A stretch of 64,000 nt of DNA, taken from Rubripirellula sp. Lineage in GTDB: Bacteria; Planctomycetota; Planctomycetia; Pirellulales; Pirellulaceae. Of the stretch, positions 26,251 through 42,741 are shown piece by piece. Positions within the stretch are counted from its first letter, which is position 1. The number at the start of each line of letters is the position of its first letter. Position numbers and translations under genes: made by a program. The stretch is from the NCBI GenBank assembly GCA_965216875.1, contig OZ244207.1:1440001-1504000 (forward strand). The letters are read 5' to 3'. The notes beneath the pieces were generated by a model. The model was not told the origin of the DNA, ran no database searches, and was given only the letters and a program-made list of their open reading frames with translations.

Positions 26251-27987
26251 TCAACCACTTCGTAGCAGCGATTCGACCCGGTCGATCGCCTGTTGGACGG
26301 TCATGGCCGTTCCGGCTCGACCAATCGGTTTGCCGTTATCACGCCACTTTTCGACGTTTTTTCCGGCTGCGATCGCCGTGCTGTGTGAACGCCCCCCAAA
26401 GTGCCCGGCAATCTCACTGTAGGCCGCGGAAGTCAGTTGTCGCGACAGGTACATTGCGAGCATGCGTGGTTCCGAAACCGCTCGAGTTTGAGCCGCGCCC
26501 CGAAGCGAATCGTCGGGCAAATTGAACGCGCGACAGACGGCTGATTCGATCGTGCGGAGTGTCGCGACCGGCTGAGCTGCGCGGAGGAGGTCGCCACAAT
26601 ATTGGTGGATTTCGTCGATCGACGGCATCCGTGCAAACATGCGCTGCAATGTACCGATCATGTTGGCAACACCTTGCAGCACGCGGCCGTCACCAGCCAG
26701 CAGCGGAACCAGGTACTCGACGACACTCTCGGGCACTTCCAATGGGCAACGGCCCGCAAAGGTCCGGGCCAAAAGCTCATGTCGGGTCGCGGGGTCGAGT
26801 GGTTCGAGCGGGCAGAGTAATCCGCCCGAAAGTCGACCGGCGAGTTCGCGATTGAGACCTGGGATTTCGGTTGGCGACTGGTTGCCGCTAAAGATCATCG
26901 GGCATCCACTCTCGAGCAACGTCTCGACCGTGTAGAGCATCTCGCGAAGCGTGGCGCTTTTTGATCCGAGGAATTGAACGTCGTCAACCAGTAACGCGTC
27001 GACTTCGCGATAGCGACGGCGGAAAGATGCGATGCCGCTGTTACCGACCGAAGTAATGAAATCGTTCGTGAATTGCTCTGCCGACATTTGGATGACACGC
27101 CGCATGCGATGACGACGTCGAAACTGTTCAGCGATCGCGGTCAACAAATGCGTTTTGCCAGATCCCGTCGGACCGGAGACGAATAACGGGCTCGCGGTCG
27201 TGGGCACTTGAATGGTCATCACCATGGCGGTGTGCGCCAAACGATTGCAGCTTCCTTGAATGAAGGCTGCCGCGTTCATTTCGGATCGACGTTGGTTCGA
27301 ATCCGCTTCGCCGCCCTTTGCCTGAGCCTCATTTGCGTCAAGTTCTGGCAGATCAGGCTGGACCAAGCTTTCGGTTTGCGCTGACTTGACGGGACGATCG
27401 ACTCGCCGTGTCGTGACCTTTGCCGGACGCGATCCGGTCGCGCCTTGAACCAATTGACCGATGCTGGTCGTTTTGTTGCGCCCGCCTCGTCCACGCGTTG
27501 TCTTGGTCGGTCGACGTTTGGAGCCAGTTGTGGCGGTCGCAGCCGCGCTCGAGTTGGTCTTGTCGGTTGGGGTTGCCGTGACGTCCGCAGTTGCCGTGAC
27601 ATCTGGGGTTTTTGGGGCGTCCGCGTCGAAAGGCAACGCCTTCTGAACGGGCACGGTCTCGTCCAGCTGGATCACCAGCTCGGTTTTGGGACCTGCAACT
27701 TGCACCGCAGCGGCACGCAACTCGCGAACAAAGTTCTTGCGAAGCCGTTCGATTGCAAACGGACTTTGAACCATGACAAGAACCTTGCCACCACTGGCAT
27801 CCGAAGCGGTCTGCGACGAAGGCGACGCCGATGCCTGGAAAGCAAAGGTGACTCCGCGCGTAAACCACATCCGATACCGGTCTGCACCGATGCGTTGTTC
27901 AACTGCTTCCTTGAAGGTTTCGACAACGTCCTTGTCGTCGATGCAGCCTTGCGGTGCAGACATACTGGTAGCGCAATCCTCCGTCAT
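26251..27987 (-). CDS. dnaA: DnaA-family replication initiator paralog with long linker domain
   Basis: Domain I (YRMWF), Walker A GPTGSGKTHLL, LLVDDVQFL, domain IV PRMLAMYLSRQLT..IAGHFGGRSHSTAI. Confidence 0.88.
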   Translation of the reverse strand: MTEDCATSMSAPQGCIDDKDVVETFKEAVEQRIGADRYRMWFTRGVTFAFQASASPSSQTASDASGGKVLVMVQSPFAIERLRKNFVRELRAAAVQVAGPKTELVIQLDETVPVQKALPFDADAPKTPDVTATADVTATPTDKTNSSAAATATTGSKRRPTKTTRGRGGRNKTTSIGQLVQGATGSRPAKVTTRRVDRPVKSAQTESLVQPDLPELDANEAQAKGGEADSNQRRSEMNAAAFIQGSCNRLAHTAMVMTIQVPTTASPLFVSGPTGSGKTHLLTAIAEQFRRRHRMRRVIQMSAEQFTNDFITSVGNSGIASFRRRYREVDALLVDDVQFLGSKSATLREMLYTVETLLESGCPMIFSGNQSPTEIPGLNRELAGRLSGGLLCPLEPLDPATRHELLARTFAGRCPLEVPESVVEYLVPLLAGDGRVLQGVANMIGTLQRMFARMPSIDEIHQYCGDLLRAAQPVATLRTIESAVCRAFNLPDDSLRGAAQTRAVSEPRMLAMYLSRQLTSAAYSEIAGHFGGRSHSTAIAAGKNVEKWRDNGKPIGRAGTAMTVQQAIDRVESLLRSG

Positions 27988-28200
27988 GGATGTTTCGCGA
28001 TGCAACCAAGACAACGATCCAGCGAGCCCCATTGGCAATGGCCGAGTCGTTGTACTCCTTCGTGCGTGTGATGGGTCAGGCCGCCGAAGCGTTGGCAATG
28101 AAATCTGGTCGCCAACCTAGCTCCGCTGGGCGGCAACGTGGCCTCCCAACACGCGTTTTCTCGCCTCCGATGAATAGGTTTCCTTTCAGCGAGGGAAGAG

Positions 28201-34548: not shown

Positions 34549-34591
34549 AACGTCGCGTGGCGATCAATCGATTGATTCGCTACGCGACGTT
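34549..34591. terminator. Long palindrome between convergent genes
   Basis: AACGTCGCGTGGCGATCAATCGATTGATTCGCTACGCGACGTT is nearly perfectly self-complementary. Confidence 0.55.
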
Positions 34592-35375
34592 AACCGGTTT
34601 CCGCTACCTCCAACGCCCGTTCGACCTGTCTTTTAAGGCGTTGAAGCAAGTCCCGAGGCGCAAGGATTCGTACTGTTGCTCCCGGCCCCTCATCTATCGG
34701 GTACACGCCAAGTTGAGCAGCCGGATACTCTGAAGCGGTTGCCTTGAGAATTGGCCCAATCTTGCCTTCGCCCATATCAGTGCGTATCTCCAGTTTCTCG
34801 AATTGGGAGGGGCCCAGGCCGTGGGACTTGGAAAGCGAGAGCAAGAACTTTTCGATCATCGGATTCAGCTCGCGAGGAATTCCTGGAAAGGCGCTGACAT
34901 TGCCAATCGTAAAGCCTGGCGCCGCGCCCATGATGTTTTCGATAACGACAGCACCTTCCGGGAGCAAAGCCATTTTTAGACGATGCTCGTTCAGTTCTAG
35001 TTTGGTTGGATCTTTCCCCTCCTTTCTTGCTGTGGCTTGGCGGCGTTCATAGAACGATTGCAACTGCCGAACTGCTTCAGGATGTTCGAGCCGTTTTACG
35101 CAGAACGCGTCCGCAATGCACTCGGCAGTGATGTCATCGTGAGTTGGTCCAAGTCCTCCGCTCACGATGACATGTTCATAACGCTCCCGAAGGTGATCGA
35201 CAGCCGAAACGATTTCATTGTGGACATCCTCGACGACCCTAGCCTCGATGATCCTCGCATCGTAGGGACTTAGATGCCGTGCAACGTTCTGTAAGTTGGC
35301 ATCCCGAGTGTTGCCGTTAAGTACCTCATTAGCGACAACCAGCATCGCCCATCTTCTTACCGGAGAAGCCGTCAT
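34590..35375 (-). CDS. CinA N-terminal / COG1058 molybdopterin-binding-like pyrophosphatase
   Basis: ANEVLNGNTRDAN, SGGLGPTHDDITAE, MA.LPEGA..IEN..GAAPGF, FPGIPREL; no PncC domain. Confidence 0.88.
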   Translation of the reverse strand: MTASPVRRWAMLVVANEVLNGNTRDANLQNVARHLSPYDARIIEARVVEDVHNEIVSAVDHLRERYEHVIVSGGLGPTHDDITAECIADAFCVKRLEHPEAVRQLQSFYERRQATARKEGKDPTKLELNEHRLKMALLPEGAVVIENIMGAAPGFTIGNVSAFPGIPRELNPMIEKFLLSLSKSHGLGPSQFEKLEIRTDMGEGKIGPILKATASEYPAAQLGVYPIDEGPGATVRILAPRDLLQRLKRQVERALEVAETG

Positions 35376-38300
35376 CGGTTTGTATCCTTGACCTGTTCAA
35401 ACAACTTGATGAACTCGCGTCTCGTTACGTCCGCGAGTTTGCTTGGTTTGATGTCTTTCGACTTAAGCAACAATCGGAGCAATGTGTCGGCAAGCTGGGG
35501 TGAGTACTTTATGTAGTTCTTGATCTTCGACCGTTCGATCACCTTCGCTTCTCTGGTATCCAGTTCATCGATGGTGAGGTTCGACAGCGGAACGTCAAAC
35601 TCGAGTTTGCCTTCACTTGACGGCAAGCGGCAAACTGGGATGCCAATACCTCGACGGAAACGCGAGATTTCAGCGTTGGGCGAGGTGAGGTAGTTCAGGA
35701 TTTTGCATCCAACTTCAGCAGTGCCTTGAGCCACATTAGGGGGAATGGCTAGATACCATTGGCCTGCCGTAGTGATGCGACCTGGCAGATTACGCGCCTT
35801 TAAGTTCACGTTTTCAAGATCCTGGGACAGGTCGTTGGCAAGCTTGTCCGAAAGATCTTGAGCCGTGGAAAACCACTGCCTCCATACGGTGGCGGTGCGG
35901 TCGACTTGAAACGCCTCTGGGTCAGGTGAACCGGCGGCAAGCAGCTTCGAGTAACGCCGACTCTCAAAGGACTTGCGCAGTAGTCTGCAAAAAACGGTTC
36001 CCGACGCGATGGCCACTTCGTGATGATTCCCTTTCTTGTTCATGTCCGGAATTGACCATGCGTAGTGGTCCCCTCGAGCATCGTGTTTGAAAAAATCGTC
36101 GCCCATCTGATAAGCGAAGATCTCAAGGAACAGTGAATTAATGTTCTCCACAACGCCAAAAGGGCAGTCAAATCTGATCGAGGGGTTTACCTTGTCGGCC
36201 TCGCGTGCCATCGCTTCCCAAGGGTTGGGATCTGAATAGATTTTTTTGAGTGTTCCGCTACCATCATCGCGATAGCACAAGAACGAAATGTTGTCATAGA
36301 AGGGAACAGCAGTGAACTCCTTTGAGGAGTTTAACCAGACTTGGCGGCTGATTCGTTTTGGCAGGCTTTGGATTGCGCCACCGAATGCCGATTGTGGAAG
36401 TCGTTTGCTAAGCGTGCTCTCGGGGGTTCGCTTCCAATCTTGCTCGAGAGTCGCAGGTTGTTTTATTCTCGTTCGACCGGCCTTACGAATCTCTGAGACC
36501 TGAAAGGAGTCCAAGGCGACGATGGGAAGTCCGGGAAGCGCCGAATCGTGACTCGCTTCAAAGGCGAAGAATGCGGCATCGCGGTCAAGCGACCGGACGG
36601 TAACTTCAGGAGCTAGCGTCGACGTGAGCACTTCCTTTTGATTGTTCAGATAGTCATCCATGCGATAGCTTTCAAGTGGAACGACGAGTCGAACAGGCTC
36701 TTCTTGCACCCTACCGGACAGGTCCGTCGCAAGCATTCGCTCAAGGGGTTGAGTTGCCAGGCCTGACTCCGACTCTGGTATCAATTCAACTGATTCCCAT
36801 CGGTGACTCATCCTCGGCGTTTTGGTTACCCGAAGTAACATACGACGACGCCCGAGAAGTTCTTTCGGCTCAATTTCCAGCAACATGTCGGCGGCTTCAT
36901 GGATCGCTCTGCAAATGCTGGACGACTGCAAGTCTTCGACTTTGCGATCCGTTGCAAGGATTGCAACCTGTCGGCGGCGAAACCAACGAATCAGTGATGG
37001 CCCGAAGTCTGGTTCAAGATCCAGTAGTGGGCTGAGGTGGCTCCATTCCGTCGGCGCATCGAGCAACACTCGATCGATGATCGTTCCGTCATCTCTTGCC
37101 TGTTCCCAGACATCTTCCAGGTGTTTAAATAGCTCCCCCGCACTTCCAAAGCCCGGTTTCAGCTTGAGCGTGTCGATCTGTTTCTGCAGATAAATGTTAC
37201 CGCGTGATAGAAACGTATTCTCATCAGGCGCTAGCTCCTGCGCTCGATACAAGAGGTTGTTTCGAATCGCGCGTTTGACCGACTTGGACGCTAATCGATG
37301 ATCGATCTCTGATTGCTCAAATCGCATGCTCACAACGAGTCCTTTGCGATTGAGATTGTCGGATCGCGATCCAGAGGGCAGCAGCTTTTTTGATTGCTGA
37401 GTTGTTCGCCGCACCGCTGGGTCACAAAAATCTTGCTGGTTGAGCCAACTGGCGAAGGCTAGGCCCAAGTGCGTTTTGAACGTCCCAATCGGACCTGAAA
37501 CCAAGATCAGATCACCCTGCCGCACGGACTTTTCGCCCAAGTGACGATCCAAGCTTGGCAGTCCAAAGTAGCCATCAGAGCTTCCGTCGCTCGGCAAGGA
37601 TCTTACGACTCGTACGCTATCGATCGAATCGATCGCAGCAGCAGTGAGCGAGATACGGATGCCCTCACCGGATCGGATCGCAAAAAACTGCTGCCCACGA
37701 ATCTCACGCTGGAATCGGGATTTCGTGACAGCCAAACTGCGTTTGGTGTAGTCACCTGCTTTTTGGTAACCCAGTCGAATCACAGTATCGGCGATGTCTT
37801 CGCCGAAACCGAGCCAACGCTCGTCGTCCTCTTCTGCAACGAGCACAACGTTCGCGCCTGTGTCGCAAGCCTTGCGGAGTGCAGCGTACATCAGCCGCCG
37901 CGGCTTGGATCGCTCTGGATCGCTCTCGGCCTGGTCGTCCAGAAGTAACGCATTGACCGGATCAATAAAGATCGCTCGCGGGCCATCGGGAACCATGTTT
38001 TCCGAAACAGCCTTAAGAGCGTCCAGTACGGTTTCAAGCGGCATCGGAGCATTGGCGGTGTCCTTCTTCGCGCCGTTGCCTGAAGCCTTTTCTTCCGTGT
38101 CCGTGTCATCGCTGTCCTGAACTTGGTGAGTCAGCGCACACAAAACGCCGAGTGACTTAGGCGATGAGACCACTTCGTTGGGATCGTTTTCACGCGTCTG
38201 GTAAGCTGCAACGCGTGAGGCTTCGAGTCGGAATCGTCGATCGATTGAATCGGGAGACATCGATTCCAACATGTATCGAACGTCTCGCGCGGTCAGTTCT

Positions 38301-39496
38301 AATCCGAAATACCAAGCGGTTCCGCCCTTGGCCGCAACCTCTGCAGCGAGTTGCAATGAGAGAAGAGACTTCCCCGTGCCGTAGCCACCGCGTACCAAAA
38401 CGACGCGGCCCCGTGGGATATTGGTCTCATGGGTGGTGTAGAACGCAGGTGTGTCGCAAAAATTGATGCCGCCACCACCAAACAGATCGTCGAAACCCGG
38501 GATCATGGTGGGGAGGCCAAACAGGTTTGAGATCATGTACTCAAGATCGATCTCAACCGGCACGAATCGAAACCTGCCCTGACGAGAATGTGTCGTGATG
38601 TATTTGCACAACAGGCAAGTTGCAATGAAACCATGACTTTCGGGGGTCAAGCCGTCACTGCGTCTGACCCTACCAGCTTTCCGCAACCGAGTCGAAAGAT
38701 CTTCATAGAGCACGGTCCGCGATCGATGGTTTTTGTGAGGAATGATGTCCTCTAGCGAATGTGCAAACGTTCGGAACGTTTCCAACGCATCGACTTCGCT
38801 ATTGATGCCGTACATGCGGCGAATCGTCCGGCGAAGCCAGTAGTTGCGAACTGCGGGTTCGACGGAATCGCCGAAGACCAGTTCGCCCACTTCGTGAAGA
38901 CTGAAAAAAAGGAAGTGCGAATCTCGTTTCTGCCGATCAAGCTTGCGAGACACAAGCTCTGCGCCAAGGCAGCTGACAAGCTCTTCGGTCTGCTTGGAGT
39001 CCAGCCCGAGTCGCTTGCTCGTCAGGAACGCGGCGAGTACGGATGTGTTTCTATCGGTCCTCCATTTCGCTGCTTTGATTGTTGCGTCGATTTCAGCGCT
39101 GTGCCGTTCGAGCCACTGTTCAAGTTCGCCGTATTTCTTTTTGTCGGTCGAGTAGCGTTTCAGCAAGGCCGCGAGGTGCGGAAAGTCGTCATTGCCAATT
39201 CGTGACCGCAACTTTGGCAAACACTCGACAAGCTCCAGATAGCCCACGACCTCCTTGGAGACGTCTTCCACAATGCTCTTGGAACTTTGGTGTTGCGCGC
39301 GATCTTTTGCTTTATGTATCGACTCGAGTGCTCGGTTGAGATGCTTGTGCGAATTGAAAAGGCGGTTGAGTGTGACGCCCTGTTCGGCGTCGCAATCCCA
39401 CTGAGCGAGCACAAACACGGTCGTGAATCGAGCCATCGACTCAAAGTCGTCGCCAACGTGTTTTCGAACAAACGCTTGGAGCGGAGAAGCTGTCAT
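35372..39496 (-). CDS. KaiC-like tandem RecA-fold ATPase with N-terminal unknown domain and C-terminal solute-binding-protein-like domain
   Basis: Domain 1: TMIPGFDDLFGGG..IPRGRVVLVRGGYGTGKS..IADTVIRL..RSLAVTKSR. Domain 2: FGLPSLDRHLG..GDLILVSGPIGTFKT..AADMLLEI..LRVTK. C-terminus: AVPFYDNISFLCYR, TAGQWYLAIP, ILNYLTS. Confidence 0.85.
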   Translation of the reverse strand: MTASPLQAFVRKHVGDDFESMARFTTVFVLAQWDCDAEQGVTLNRLFNSHKHLNRALESIHKAKDRAQHQSSKSIVEDVSKEVVGYLELVECLPKLRSRIGNDDFPHLAALLKRYSTDKKKYGELEQWLERHSAEIDATIKAAKWRTDRNTSVLAAFLTSKRLGLDSKQTEELVSCLGAELVSRKLDRQKRDSHFLFFSLHEVGELVFGDSVEPAVRNYWLRRTIRRMYGINSEVDALETFRTFAHSLEDIIPHKNHRSRTVLYEDLSTRLRKAGRVRRSDGLTPESHGFIATCLLCKYITTHSRQGRFRFVPVEIDLEYMISNLFGLPTMIPGFDDLFGGGGINFCDTPAFYTTHETNIPRGRVVLVRGGYGTGKSLLSLQLAAEVAAKGGTAWYFGLELTARDVRYMLESMSPDSIDRRFRLEASRVAAYQTRENDPNEVVSSPKSLGVLCALTHQVQDSDDTDTEEKASGNGAKKDTANAPMPLETVLDALKAVSENMVPDGPRAIFIDPVNALLLDDQAESDPERSKPRRLMYAALRKACDTGANVVLVAEEDDERWLGFGEDIADTVIRLGYQKAGDYTKRSLAVTKSRFQREIRGQQFFAIRSGEGIRISLTAAAIDSIDSVRVVRSLPSDGSSDGYFGLPSLDRHLGEKSVRQGDLILVSGPIGTFKTHLGLAFASWLNQQDFCDPAVRRTTQQSKKLLPSGSRSDNLNRKGLVVSMRFEQSEIDHRLASKSVKRAIRNNLLYRAQELAPDENTFLSRGNIYLQKQIDTLKLKPGFGSAGELFKHLEDVWEQARDDGTIIDRVLLDAPTEWSHLSPLLDLEPDFGPSLIRWFRRRQVAILATDRKVEDLQSSSICRAIHEAADMLLEIEPKELLGRRRMLLRVTKTPRMSHRWESVELIPESESGLATQPLERMLATDLSGRVQEEPVRLVVPLESYRMDDYLNNQKEVLTSTLAPEVTVRSLDRDAAFFAFEASHDSALPGLPIVALDSFQVSEIRKAGRTRIKQPATLEQDWKRTPESTLSKRLPQSAFGGAIQSLPKRISRQVWLNSSKEFTAVPFYDNISFLCYRDDGSGTLKKIYSDPNPWEAMAREADKVNPSIRFDCPFGVVENINSLFLEIFAYQMGDDFFKHDARGDHYAWSIPDMNKKGNHHEVAIASGTVFCRLLRKSFESRRYSKLLAAGSPDPEAFQVDRTATVWRQWFSTAQDLSDKLANDLSQDLENVNLKARNLPGRITTAGQWYLAIPPNVAQGTAEVGCKILNYLTSPNAEISRFRRGIGIPVCRLPSSEGKLEFDVPLSNLTIDELDTREAKVIERSKIKNYIKYSPQLADTLLRLLLKSKDIKPSKLADVTRREFIKLFEQVKDTNR

Positions 39497-40242
39497 CGAG
39501 CCGAATTCCTACGGAGGCCAATACGTTCTTGAAAGCCAGTTTTTTTCGCAGGAAGCGCCTTGAGAGAAAGCCGCAAGTCGTATTGTTTGTTCATGATTGC
39601 GTTGGCAGGCGCTGCGGTTAGGACTTCAGGGCGGTGTGCAGGCGAATGTTCCACCGCAATAGCAAACGCAGCTGGCTCAACCACTTCAGTATTGAAAACG
39701 GTTTCGTCTTGCGATTCTTCGATGGGGGCTTCGTCCGCTAGCTCAACCGGTTGTGGCAGTGCATTGACTTCCTCGTCGCATCTCCCCTGGTCATCGCAAC
39801 CGAATACCTTGCCGCCATGTTTGAGTGTGAGTGCGAGTGAATTGAAATAGATAACAGCTGTCCGCAAAACATCGCTTGGTGAGGGCACGTGGTCATGTTT
39901 GTCCTTCATGTGTGCCTTGATGACTGCAATCAGGTTCGCGTGCCTTGGTTGTTTCGCGATTAGCAAGTTCTTTGTGAATCCGCCCGTCTGATCGTTCGAG
40001 CTCATTGCGAGCGATTTGATCGGCGATGCCACGTAGTAGGTTTCGCTTTGGTCAGAGTTTGAAACCAACAGTTGCTTTTCGCGATCGATTTCAAGAAGGC
40101 GGCGCAATAGATCAAGCGCTATACACAGCGATTCCGGGCGACCTTTGTTTCCATGCAGCTCGCGTGATATCAGGCAAAAGCTGTCTCGATCACTCTCGTG
40201 CAGTCGAAAGGAAAAGCGTTCCTTGGATTTTTTTTCAGACAT
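39493..40242 (-). CDS. Hypothetical protein, probable tandem ribbon-helix-helix DNA-binding protein
   Basis: Two similar modules: RFSFRL..PESLCIALDLL.. and NLLI..SDVLRTAV..GGKV; ATGA overlap with the KaiC-like gene. Confidence 0.6.
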   Translation of the reverse strand: MSEKKSKERFSFRLHESDRDSFCLISRELHGNKGRPESLCIALDLLRRLLEIDREKQLLVSNSDQSETYYVASPIKSLAMSSNDQTGGFTKNLLIAKQPRHANLIAVIKAHMKDKHDHVPSPSDVLRTAVIYFNSLALTLKHGGKVFGCDDQGRCDEEVNALPQPVELADEAPIEESQDETVFNTEVVEPAAFAIAVEHSPAHRPEVLTAAPANAIMNKQYDLRLSLKALPAKKTGFQERIGLRRNSAR

Positions 40243-40262
40243 TGTCTTGCCTATCGTTGACC

Positions 40263-41714
40263 CTACTCTTCAAACGTAAGATTCGTTCCGATCACTTTTG
40301 TGAGCTCTTTTCTTGCTTCATCCGTGAGGATTGATCCAGGGGGACGCTTCAGCGTGCGTTCGATATCTCGGAGACAACGTCCGACCACTTCGCAAAAGAT
40401 TGGATTCAAGTCGTCCCACGTGTTCCCGCCGATGTGACGTGTCACGAGGACATCGGGCAGGACTTCATTTAGTAGGACTTGGACGGCAGCACCCTCCTCT
40501 TTCTCGGTGCCAGCCTCTTTGTCTTCTTCGTCTTCGTCACGGACTAAATGGTCGACGCTCCGATGCGTCAACCCACCGCTCATCTCGGGACAAAGTCGGA
40601 GCAGCGGATGCCTTTCCGCGAGCACCGTTGGGTTGTTTTCGCATCGCGCGTCGAGCAAGTCAGATGCCGCGCGAATGACCTTTTTCGAGACGGCCTCAGC
40701 GACATCGTGTTCGTTCCATATCGCGTGTCTTGCGACGTTGATCAACAGCGGCAACGGGCCCTGATCACTACCCATTGCGGAAATCAACTCCTCGTTGACG
40801 ACTCCCAAAGTGTTTTGGGCTTCCTTGAGGTGAATGGACACGATGTCGCGATTGTTGACGGCGGCCGAGAGTGTTTTGCAGGCCGTGATCCAGATGGCCT
40901 TGCCATTGGAAGACCTGAATTTGCATTCCAACGTGGTGTCGTCGTCGTTGTGTTCAACGTACTCCAAACTCCAGTTTCCCCAGCCGGTCGATTTCCGAAC
41001 AAAGACGACCAGGTGTTCAAGGATCTGGGTCTCGTTCATGTTTTCGTATTTGTAGTGGAATCCAGAAAAACGATTCACTCCACAGATCACAAGACGCTGG
41101 AACAGAACGTTCACCTGGTTGCCCATCCCAAGAAATGACCAACTTTTTGAAGCGAGGCGACGACTCTGTTCCAGTCCGAAGACAAGAAAGTGGGGAAACT
41201 CCGTTTCGTCTCGGTGAGCGGTATACGCCATTCCCCGCGCGTTGGTCGTCAGCGGTCGAAACGCTTCCATGGCAAACCAGAGGGTCAAATCGACGACCGC
41301 CTCACTATTGGTCGTGACCGTGGCTGCATGAGCGTGGGAATTGTCCGGCCTTGCCTGGGCTTTGAGGCTTGGCTTGAGTCCAACCGAGAGCGAACCCAGG
41401 ACAAGGGGCACGGCTGGATCTCGCTGAAGACCAGCTATGTAATCGCCAAGGTTGTTCCCACCGGTTGTAGGCCTTGAAATAATACACGTAGCATTTGCGA
41501 TCGCCTCTTGATCGTCAGAGCTGTAGTTGGCGCTGGAACTCTCTTGGATTTGATAGAGCCTGATGTTGTCGTTCGCGTTTAGTTTCCGCAAAACGCGCAG
41601 CCCAGCGAGCAGTCCAGAGATACCGTTATTCAACGGAGCCGAATCAAGCGAGCCGGTCACATTAAAGGGGACCGACAACGGCAGTACGACGACTAATGGA
41701 GGTTTCTCTTGCAT
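40263..41714 (-). CDS. Divergent D-isomer-specific 2-hydroxyacid dehydrogenase (SerA-like) fold protein
   Basis: NSEAVVDLTL, RLASKSWSFLGMGN, DIVSIHL..NTLGVVN, LLINVARHAIWNE, AASDLL, HPL, VLVTRHIGGNT. Start at ATG 41714 preferred over TTG 41876. Confidence 0.72.
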   Translation of the reverse strand: MQEKPPLVVVLPLSVPFNVTGSLDSAPLNNGISGLLAGLRVLRKLNANDNIRLYQIQESSSANYSSDDQEAIANATCIISRPTTGGNNLGDYIAGLQRDPAVPLVLGSLSVGLKPSLKAQARPDNSHAHAATVTTNSEAVVDLTLWFAMEAFRPLTTNARGMAYTAHRDETEFPHFLVFGLEQSRRLASKSWSFLGMGNQVNVLFQRLVICGVNRFSGFHYKYENMNETQILEHLVVFVRKSTGWGNWSLEYVEHNDDDTTLECKFRSSNGKAIWITACKTLSAAVNNRDIVSIHLKEAQNTLGVVNEELISAMGSDQGPLPLLINVARHAIWNEHDVAEAVSKKVIRAASDLLDARCENNPTVLAERHPLLRLCPEMSGGLTHRSVDHLVRDEDEEDKEAGTEKEEGAAVQVLLNEVLPDVLVTRHIGGNTWDDLNPIFCEVVGRCLRDIERTLKRPPGSILTDEARKELTKVIGTNLTFEE

Positions 41715-42069
41715 GTGCCCCGTGGACCCGCGTGCCTCGTGTCTCAACTCCGGTTGCAGGGTGAGAATAGGAACGCCCGCATGCAACCTTTCGCCTCCAG
41801 CCAGGAAAGCTAGAACGAATATAGTAGCTACGCGAATTCGGTCATCAATTGGACAAAAGACCATCTTGTATGCCAATTTCGGGAGGTGCTCGATGTGTAT
41901 GCACTCCTAATGACACACAGTAGCAAGTCTGGTTCATAACGCCAATATAATTCGCGGATAATGCGACAGAGCGTCGTGCCTCCGTGATAGAATAGTGGTA
42001 GGTCAACCGCGAGCTTGGCGTTAAAGACACACGGGATTGCCTGGATTGACATACAAAGAAGCGAGGGCC

Positions 42070-42741
42070 TTACTTGACGTCAAGAGCCTGTTTCAAGGGG
42101 CAGGTCTTATCCAAGTCCCGCTCGCTTCGATAACCGTCGAGTAGATGTTTCGATCGCTGCGCCAGCATTCGGCGCACTTCTCGGCGTTTCCCCTTCACGC
42201 GGGGGATCTTCATGTTGTCGTACGCGGTCGTCTGATGACGCATCCAAGCGATCACGGCCGCTTCCGCACGCTTTTCGACCGGGATGCGTTTGGTGCGAGC
42301 AACCGTGCCGCTGCCAACGGGCGTCGCATGCTTGGTCACTGCACGAGCAAGCTTTTCCGCGATGTCGTGGTGGGCCGGATGAAAGTCGAGGTAGCCGAGC
42401 ACCTCGCCATAGAACTCGTCGACATATTCCGTTTGGACCTTTTGGCGACGTTTGGCGTCGGAGGCTTTTCGTTTTGCGTAGGCATCAGTCGATCGCTCGG
42501 CATCCAAGTCTGCGCGAATCTGGTTGATCGTTTCGGCGGGCGCCCAAACGCCTTTGGAAAAGGTGCGACGCCCTTTCTTTTCCTGGACCACCCAATGCTC
42601 GCCAGCCGCCTTCACTCGCCGCGTCATTCCTGCATCTCCCGGTGGCAATAAAGCCCAGCCCTTCGGGACGGAGATGACCTTCCCCTTCGAATCACGAACG
42701 GTTGAATCGGTGGGGCCCGGTGAGAAAGCATCTTTTGTCAT
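42070..42741 (-). CDS. DUF2293 domain protein
   Basis: LLPPGDAG.TRRVK, KGVWAP, ATPVGSGTVART, AVIAWMRHQTTAYD. Confidence 0.85.
   Translation of the reverse strand: MTKDAFSPGPTDSTVRDSKGKVISVPKGWALLPPGDAGMTRRVKAAGEHWVVQEKKGRRTFSKGVWAPAETINQIRADLDAERSTDAYAKRKASDAKRRQKVQTEYVDEFYGEVLGYLDFHPAHHDIAEKLARAVTKHATPVGSGTVARTKRIPVEKRAEAAVIAWMRHQTTAYDNMKIPRVKGKRREVRRMLAQRSKHLLDGYRSERDLDKTCPLKQALDVK

Follow-up and report, generated by a model that had tools for sequence, protein, structure and literature searches.

A KaiC-type double ATPase fused to a cytoplasmic solute-binding fold, a candidate ligand-gated core of conflict-type bacterial operons

Tandem RecA-type ATPase domains in the order CI-CII are found in the circadian protein KaiC (Synechococcus/Thermosynechococcus and Rhodobacter; structures 1u9i, 8fwi and 8zn5). 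The protein considered here has the same order of domains, and is encoded on the minus strand at 35372..39496 of a 64,000-nucleotide stretch, referred to as the window, from the complete 8.26 Mb genome of Rubripirellula sp. (assembly GCA_965216875.1, contig OZ244207.1, positions 1,440,001 to 1,504,000). Whilst the Walker A and B motifs and the K-x-R finger of CI are common to both, CII of this protein lacks the catalytic Glu pair, an intact Walker A and the residues S431/T432. In addition, the KaiA-binding tail is replaced by a 440-residue binding domain and a winged-helix-like N-terminus has been added. The protein scores 13.6 against the NCBIfam circ_KaiC model, for which the cut-off is 546. 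No kaiA or kaiB family was found among the five neighbouring genes, to which the search for these families was confined. With the catalytic Glu and phosphorylation sites of CII lost and no kaiB or kaiA adjoining, identification as a circadian KaiC was rejected.

Archaeal KaiC-like signalling hubs, together with inactivated iKaiC domains, are described by Makarova et al. 2017 (as cited in PMC5847659), and PMC13700489 likewise treats KaiC hubs. In such hubs, KaiC-like ATPases and their inactivated copies are fused to signalling domains, which is comparable to the arrangement seen here; the present system differs in being bacterial, in having an internal solute-binding sensor and in its effector operons. 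The C-terminal part of the protein resembles the binding proteins of MalE/TMBP-type ABC importers (6dtq, 1eu8, 6j9w), with which it shares a bilobed type II fold throughout its length (Z 22.5), together with the Trp, Arg and Asn positions of the pocket. In contrast to these proteins, however, it forms the C-terminal domain of a cytoplasmic ATPase, with 13-16% identity and no signal peptide. The domain being internal, with no export signal and no permease genes among the neighbours scanned, an exported importer component was also rejected. The protein is neither a clock protein nor a transporter component, but a conserved KaiC-solute-binding fusion.

At the level of operons, the closest comparison is with the nucleoside triphosphate (NTP)-dependent conflict systems, which comprise MoxR-vWA ternary systems, GTPase-GAP1 systems and EAD adaptors (Kaur, Burroughs, Iyer and Aravind 2020, PMC7159879). 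As set out there, a constant NTPase core is accompanied by variable effectors, and a small helical domain is carried by the variable partners and occasionally fused to the core. Both features recur in the present family, although the partners in the window are unique. The core in those systems is MoxR-vWA or GTPase-GAP1, whereas here it belongs to the RecA/KaiC class, and the sensor of this family is a solute-binding fold instead. There are 0 occurrences of KaiC, RecA or RAD55 in the main text of PMC7159879, and the main text of PMC8195603 makes no mention of KaiC or RecA. Our literature searches, whose coverage left out most subscription journals and the Aravind-group supplements, returned no account of a KaiC-solute-binding fusion. 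Within the literature searched, an NTPase-thresholded system of conflict or signalling type with this unusual core is thus undescribed.

Domain anatomy of the fusion protein

The initial annotation, made from the letters of the window, had proposed a KaiC-like double ATPase fused to a solute-binding-like domain within a single reading frame. Both the 1374-residue frame and the fusion were borne out, the latter by a Pfam scan (KaiC ATPase, E 1.5e-20, two stretches), by profile comparisons and by an AlphaFold model. The gene and its domains are as follows.

35372..39496, minus strand: main gene, 1374 residues, with winged-helix-like N-terminus, KaiC CI, degenerate KaiC CII and cytoplasmic solute-binding fold
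39011..39496, minus strand: lineage-specific N-terminal extension, residues 1-162, common only to homologue P0002 in the family alignment
38531..39010, minus strand: conserved N-terminal core, winged-helix-like, residues 163-322 (profile match and model of a homologue)
37607..38530, minus strand: KaiC-type ATPase CI, residues 323-630 (KaiC profile E 1e-29; conservation in 113 members)
36713..37606, minus strand: degenerate KaiC CII, residues 631-928 (KaiC profile matches; conservation)
35375..36712, minus strand: MalE/TMBP-type cytoplasmic solute-binding domain, residues 929-1374 (profiles, model and pocket mapping)

The motifs on which the proposal was based were found in their places: the first Walker A at 38366-38389, the second at 37472-37495, IHEAADML at 36881-36904, and the three C-terminal motifs at 36269-36310, 35741-35770 and 35669-35704. 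Contigs from two public DNA runs, possibly the source of this assembly, reproduce this stretch without a difference. The fusion is therefore not a frame artefact, and an assembly artefact was rejected.

CI and CII profiles were each built from 14 homologues. The CI profile matches solved KaiC at E 1e-29, and the CII profile matches CII of solved KaiC over the whole domain (profile 2-242) at E of about 1e-7 to 1e-8, so that the second repeat is indeed RecA-like. The two profiles also match each other (HHalign, probability 94%, E 1.5e-7). Out of 157 proteins collected, residue conservation was counted in the 113 with the complete set of four domains; the remaining 44 are fragments or have other architectures. 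CI contains Walker A K376, Glu400, Walker B D512-P513, E555 and the finger K592-S-R594. K376, D512, E555, K592, R594 and Q596 are invariant (113/113), and Glu400 is kept in 111. The absence of a catalytic EE pair, which had been noted for the second ATPase, holds there but is not peculiar to it: CI has no such pair either, reading E-Q in the family and E-L in this protein, with the single Glu400 retained.

CII has decayed. Its P-loop keeps G668 in all 113 members and K674 in 100, with the Gly preceding K674 replaced by F, Y, L, S or A across the family. Glu is found at the end of the catalytic strand (position 725) in just two members, and the K-x-R finger retains its K in 92 and its R in 86. 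By profile alignment, the equivalents of the KaiC autophosphorylation sites S431 and T432 are positions 866 and 867. In this protein they are H866 and E867, so the phospho-acceptors are missing, as the initial annotation had read from the IHEAADML segment. Position 866 is mostly hydrophobic in the family; position 867 is D or E in 75 members and S or T in 8. Since the catalytic set of CI is invariant and CII has decayed, CI, which is under strong conservation, is very probably an active ATPase, and CII is predicted to be a non-catalytic, nucleotide-binding relay. The sole argument for a hexameric ring, which is likewise predicted, is the invariant, trans-acting K-x-R finger. A further point is that the CI Walker B reads D-P (position 513) in 104 of the 113 members. 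With this D-P, the family may natively be without the slow isomerisation step of KaiC. One of the structure matches, 4tlb, is presumably the S146P mutant of KaiC.

For the C-terminal domain, a profile of 15 sequences gave matches at E<=1 to 17 solved sequences, all but one of them solute-binding proteins. The best match was MalE3 6dtq (E 1.1e-17), and a trehalose/maltose-binding protein was matched at E 7.7e-12; enlarging the profile to 47 sequences improved the result to E 7.7e-22. For residues 929-1374, the AlphaFold model (pLDDT 72.5) aligns with 6dtq with Z 22.5 and a root-mean-square deviation (rmsd) of 3.8 A over 340 residues, and the matches listed for this model are solute-binding proteins throughout. 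The region thus models as the type II binding fold that had been anticipated. We then considered the pocket. D118, W287 and R356 of the Thermus alpha-glycoside-binding protein, chosen as positions mutated according to PDB titles (R49 lies outside the alignment), align to N1069, W1247 and R1322, so that the three mappable positions read D118 to N, W287 to W and R356 to R. No literature confirmation was found for these alpha-glycoside-binding residues, the mapping resting on the PDB titles. In the family N1069 is kept in 102, W1247 in 105 and R1322 in 112 of the 113 members, and W1208, a further pocket position, in 112. A C-x-x-C motif occurs within the last 45 residues of 62 members and is absent from this protein.

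That this domain cannot be exported, as had been argued from its internal position, agrees with hydropathy: no segment of the full protein is hydrophobic (the highest 19-residue Kyte-Doolittle mean being 1.25), and the maximum reaches 2.0 in only three of the 113 members. Ordinary binding proteins caught by the same profile start with signal-like peptides (three of five, those in the right frame). No permease or ABC ATPase genes are present among the neighbours scanned, in the window or in relatives.

The N-terminal region had been described as some 320 residues of unknown helical structure. The extent stands, but the region can no longer simply be called unknown, since the homologous region models as winged-helix-like. 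The model is of the 258-residue region of homologue L006 rather than of this protein, with pLDDT 91. Both of its halves align to winged-helix domains with Z 3-5 (best 5.2, rmsd 3.2, 92 residues aligned), and most of the 50 rows listed are winged-helix-type chains, covering model ranges of about 14-130 or 126-245. The first half resembles the CRP family, and the second half chains of Roquin, DpnI, cullin and JetABC. Foldseek gave no match to the model at E<=0.001, and the N-terminal profile has no match by sequence among solved structures. Two winged-helix-like units are therefore a weak lead from modelling. Residues 163-341, which include 19 residues of CI, match an N-terminal profile built without this protein at E 3e-34. 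P0002 shares the N-terminal extension of about 160 residues and matches the N-terminal profile twice; residues 1-162 probably arose by partial duplication of that unit, an event which in this protein we infer.

Operons and distribution of the family

In relatives, the family gene is preceded by one to four genes on the same strand and has no conserved downstream partner. The partners vary. They include patatin, metallophosphoesterase, nSTAND1, TPR, ECF sigma region 2 and S_4TM proteins, as well as TIR, PNP, alpha/beta hydrolase, CHAT, KAP NTPase and CN hydrolase proteins. An ECF sigma-like gene is paired with a metallophosphoesterase at six loci (L015-L017, L036, L037 and L056), and TPR genes accompany HExxH-type pairs, a motif read by eye. 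At L008 (2478-5164), L009, L024 and L050, two helical paralogues lie in tandem, only one of them having HExxH, and the next gene encodes a TPR protein whose end is formed by the shared domain described below. Effector-type PADLOC models were matched by 7 of the 20 proteins scanned, namely five partners and two TIR-type fusions. Nine of the 42 genes clustered belong to the type of first gene seen most often, whose structural neighbours are DarT- and OspC-like (TM-score 0.45-0.51) and which has no Pfam match or PDB match by sequence; this DarT/OspC-like family stands at the operon head at L005 (5649-6467) and eight related loci. A second ADP-ribosyltransferase (ART)-like family, judged by eye, occupies the same place at L012, L013 and L051.

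The gene directly upstream of the ATPase often ends in a common helical domain of about 130 residues. Over 44 distinct loci, with six near-duplicates and three transposase-split loci excluded, 17 of the 20 seed genes pass leave-one-out at E<1e-3, and five non-seed genes score 6.4-12.8 bits, compared with 5.1 for the best of 449 control open reading frames (ORFs). The domain occurs once per genome, adjoining the ATPase, in four of five genomes, and in none of 400 genomes without the ATPase. L009 and P0023 are fusions of this domain with the ATPase, and two further proteins, one of which is probably the L047 gene, combine it with TIR. It has no match by sequence among solved structures, and its profile does not match the core N-terminus; among the 157 core proteins it is found only in the fused member P0023. 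Complex prediction for the L006 N-terminal region and the shared domain scored 0.00, which gives no answer either way. Homotypic EADs, by the definition of PMC7159879, are present on both effector and core. The shared domain, in contrast, occurs as a single copy and has no counterpart on the core; it was accordingly rejected as a homotypic EAD.

Direct fusions of the binding domain itself to TIR (P0139) and to DUF4062 (P0127) occur as well. These are two-domain proteins without the ATPase, and are candidate stand-alone ligand-gated effectors. Near two family members lie an ABC-three-component system (L015:13662-19018, with CTD2, MComp1 and an SMC-like ATPase) and an S_4TM effector (L016:3915-4832), a hint of defence-island context.

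The family is scattered. The binding-domain profile gathers 369 clusters (50% identity) at E<=1e-30, and 1596 at E 1e-3, a set that will include ordinary binding proteins. The family is absent from all 40 close relatives searched and is found in 2 of 400 other genomes of its own phylum, one of the two being a truncated piece; 400 further genomes of the phylum of genome G441 hold 0 full-length members, and the viral contigs searched hold no relatives. Fifteen GTDB loci are spread over Acidobacteriota, Myxococcota, Verrucomicrobiota and a single Bacillota bin, with mostly uncultured bins as hosts, and 56 further loci come from metagenomes. A truncated remnant in genome G325 adjoins a transposase-like ORF. 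Truncated or transposase-interrupted members are present at L104 (6875-8792) and L030-L032, consistent with frequent gain and loss. In a tree made by a quick method, with SH-aLRT support only and two of the five outgroup rows (L100 and L102) in the wrong frame and uninformative, P0139 and P0127 fall in the 48-row clade of this protein (support 95).

The same Rubripirellula genome contains a distant paralogue of KaiC-KaiC-binding-fold architecture (L003:7368-12641; G000:C1 about 37370-42640, minus strand) with 1285 residues. It has no winged-helix N-terminus and lies directly after a PilT/T2SSE-like ATPase gene (469 residues). At L055 (2579-4102) the 3' end of a family member and a T2SSE/PilT-like ATPase gene overlap, which may connect the two subtypes.

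The operon in the window

The main gene is the third of four minus-strand genes, in the order dehydrogenase-like gene, 249-residue gene, ATPase gene and COG1058 gene, whose GC contents are 0.51-0.54 (genome 0.563). Gene order is not kept in G001 and G002. The other three genes are listed here.

40263..41876, minus strand: divergent D-2-hydroxyacid-dehydrogenase-like gene (Pfam 2-Hacid_dh_C, E 4.9e-9)
39493..40242, minus strand: 249-residue gene, ribbon-helix-helix (RHH)-like regulator as a weak lead, overlapping the main start by ATGA
34590..35375, minus strand: stand-alone COG1058/CinA-N (MoCF_biosynth) gene, 261 residues, overlapping the main stop by ATGA

The dehydrogenase-like gene has two possible starts, giving 537 residues from TTG 41876 or 483 from ATG 41714, and lies 20 nucleotides upstream of the 249-residue gene. 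Aligned to SerA, its product keeps the Arg and His motifs; no other homologue was seen among 8000 candidates scored. Those Atlas neighbours of the 249-residue protein that have RHH/Arc/NikA families score no higher than 0.81-0.82, and the protein has no match to Pfam, NCBIfam or the shared upstream domain. Members of the COG1058 family hydrolyse ADP-ribose, Ap2A and FAD, according to PMC3680494. In comparison with the pyrophosphatases described there, the copy in the window is a second one, stand-alone and translationally coupled to the ATPase gene. It is distinct from the housekeeping CinA of the genome, has the Glu, Asp and Gly-Gly/Asp motifs retained in alignment, and is predicted from its sequence to be an ADP-ribose/FAD pyrophosphatase. 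The last three genes of the operon are joined by ATGA overlaps. Promoter and terminator scans were at chance level (4 compared with 3.8, and 6 compared with 9.0). Elsewhere in the window, the minus-strand gene at 26251-28098 was judged by eye to be DnaA-like, preceded at its N-terminus by a long linker.

Proposed function and alternatives

The constant last gene, the variable enzyme partners and the shared upstream domain in relatives point to a conflict-type multi-gene system. The invariant catalytic set of CI, the pocket residues kept across the family, the patchy distribution, the GC content of the operon, the PADLOC effector matches among the partners and the direct TIR fusion of the binding domain speak for such a switch as well. 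We put at about one half the probability that the protein is a ligand-gated ATPase switch, and the constant core of a horizontally moving family of conflict/immune-type operons. On this model, the binding domain would close on a glycoside or sugar-nucleotide of the cytoplasm, such as a product of ADP-ribose type or one that derives from infection, and the non-catalytic CII would pass the change to CI. ATP turnover in the KaiC-like ring would then expose or release the winged-helix N-terminus, which would act on DNA or on partners (TIR, ADP-ribosyltransferase-fold, phospholipase, phosphoesterase or sigma/anti-sigma). In the window the partners would be two NAD-linked enzymes, dehydrogenase-like and ADP-ribose-pyrophosphatase-like, and the RHH-like protein, so that the output here would be NAD/ADP-ribose pools and the operon's own transcription. 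All steps beyond the domain anatomy are inferred, and ATPase activity, the ring, ligand binding, expression and defence are predictions. The earlier description of the protein as a one-component sensor fits its domain anatomy but is incomplete, in that the relatives are the last gene of multi-gene operons with variable enzymes.

A more specific version can be put forward tentatively, with the odds somewhat against it. The family would then be a new class of machine for immunity or conflict in bacteria. A sugar-binding protein of periplasmic type would have become a receptor inside the cell for a pattern or second messenger, a KaiC double ring would stand in for the STAND/MoxR NTPase as threshold switch, and swappable effectors (TIR, DarT-like ADP-ribosyltransferase, patatin, phosphoesterase or sigma factor) would be attached through a helical adaptor not described before, the variant here being rewired to NAD/ADP-ribose enzymes. 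If true, a RecA/KaiC-class switch and a solute-binding sensor would join the parts list of bacterial immunity, the KaiC double domain would have a non-clock use with a pseudo-ATPase relay, and a cytoplasmic glycoside or nucleotide signal not yet known would be implied. A ligand-binding domain and operons of two to four genes make these questions directly testable.

Several observations weigh against a conflict-type switch. The atypical operon is the main weakness in carrying the family reading to this copy: it has neither the shared upstream domain nor a classic toxin, none of its three neighbours recurs in any fetched family locus, and the family-level interpretation therefore reaches this copy by homology alone. 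Across the family, no trace of the shared domain was seen at 19 of the 44 loci, this window included. The core protein matches no PADLOC 2.0 model beyond a P-loop fragment (E 0.0023); the core and ART-like genes are unmatched in PADLOC, with P0013 and P0003 giving no match at 1e-4. The protein itself lies on a long branch (1.87), with 25-31% identity to the family, and its CII finger Arg is replaced by Pro (R894P). In the binding domain, family-conserved positions are changed (D988P, E989G, Q991P, Q994A, E997S and S1255V); the first five of these make up an altered N-lobe motif, and the ligand may accordingly differ from that of the family. Lastly, the Z of 3-5 for the winged-helix assignment is below the level that the tool calls common.

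An alternative in line with the initial annotation is a one-component metabolic or transcriptional regulator that plays no part in defence, in which a cytoplasmic sugar or NAD-pathway metabolite is sensed and the ATPase gates winged-helix DNA binding or a sigma/anti-sigma pair. The winged-helix-like N-terminus, the RHH-like lead upstream of the ATPase gene, the metabolic families of the two enzyme neighbours and the six loci with an ECF sigma-like gene and metallophosphoesterase are all in keeping with it. However, a regulator of this kind sits poorly with absence from close relatives and scatter over phyla, the partners are TIR, patatin, PNP, STAND and ART-fold genes rather than sugar-catabolic operons, and the same binding domain is directly fused to TIR. 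We regard it as rather unlikely, though it is the strongest of the competing explanations. It is less probable still that the binding fold is a scaffold or protein-recognition module, engaging an invader protein or a partner in place of a small ligand and triggered in the manner of NLR-type sensors. Family-specific conserved motifs of surface type beyond the mapped pocket, the altered N-lobe residues of this protein and the C-x-x-C tail, which suggests added structural roles, would suit such a module, but the sugar-contact positions are among the best conserved of the domain, even if possibly for structural reasons.

Finally, this copy could be a decaying orphan that was inserted, lost its original partners and has its present neighbours by chance. 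The long branch, the loss of several family-conserved residues and of the shared upstream domain, and the truncated remnant beside a transposase-like ORF in G325 are what would be expected of an orphan. We consider this very improbable, as the frame of 1374 codons is intact and encodes the CI catalytic residues in full, the main gene is joined to each of its flanking genes by an ATGA overlap, and P0002, which has the same N-terminal extension, groups with this protein in the tree with support of 98.

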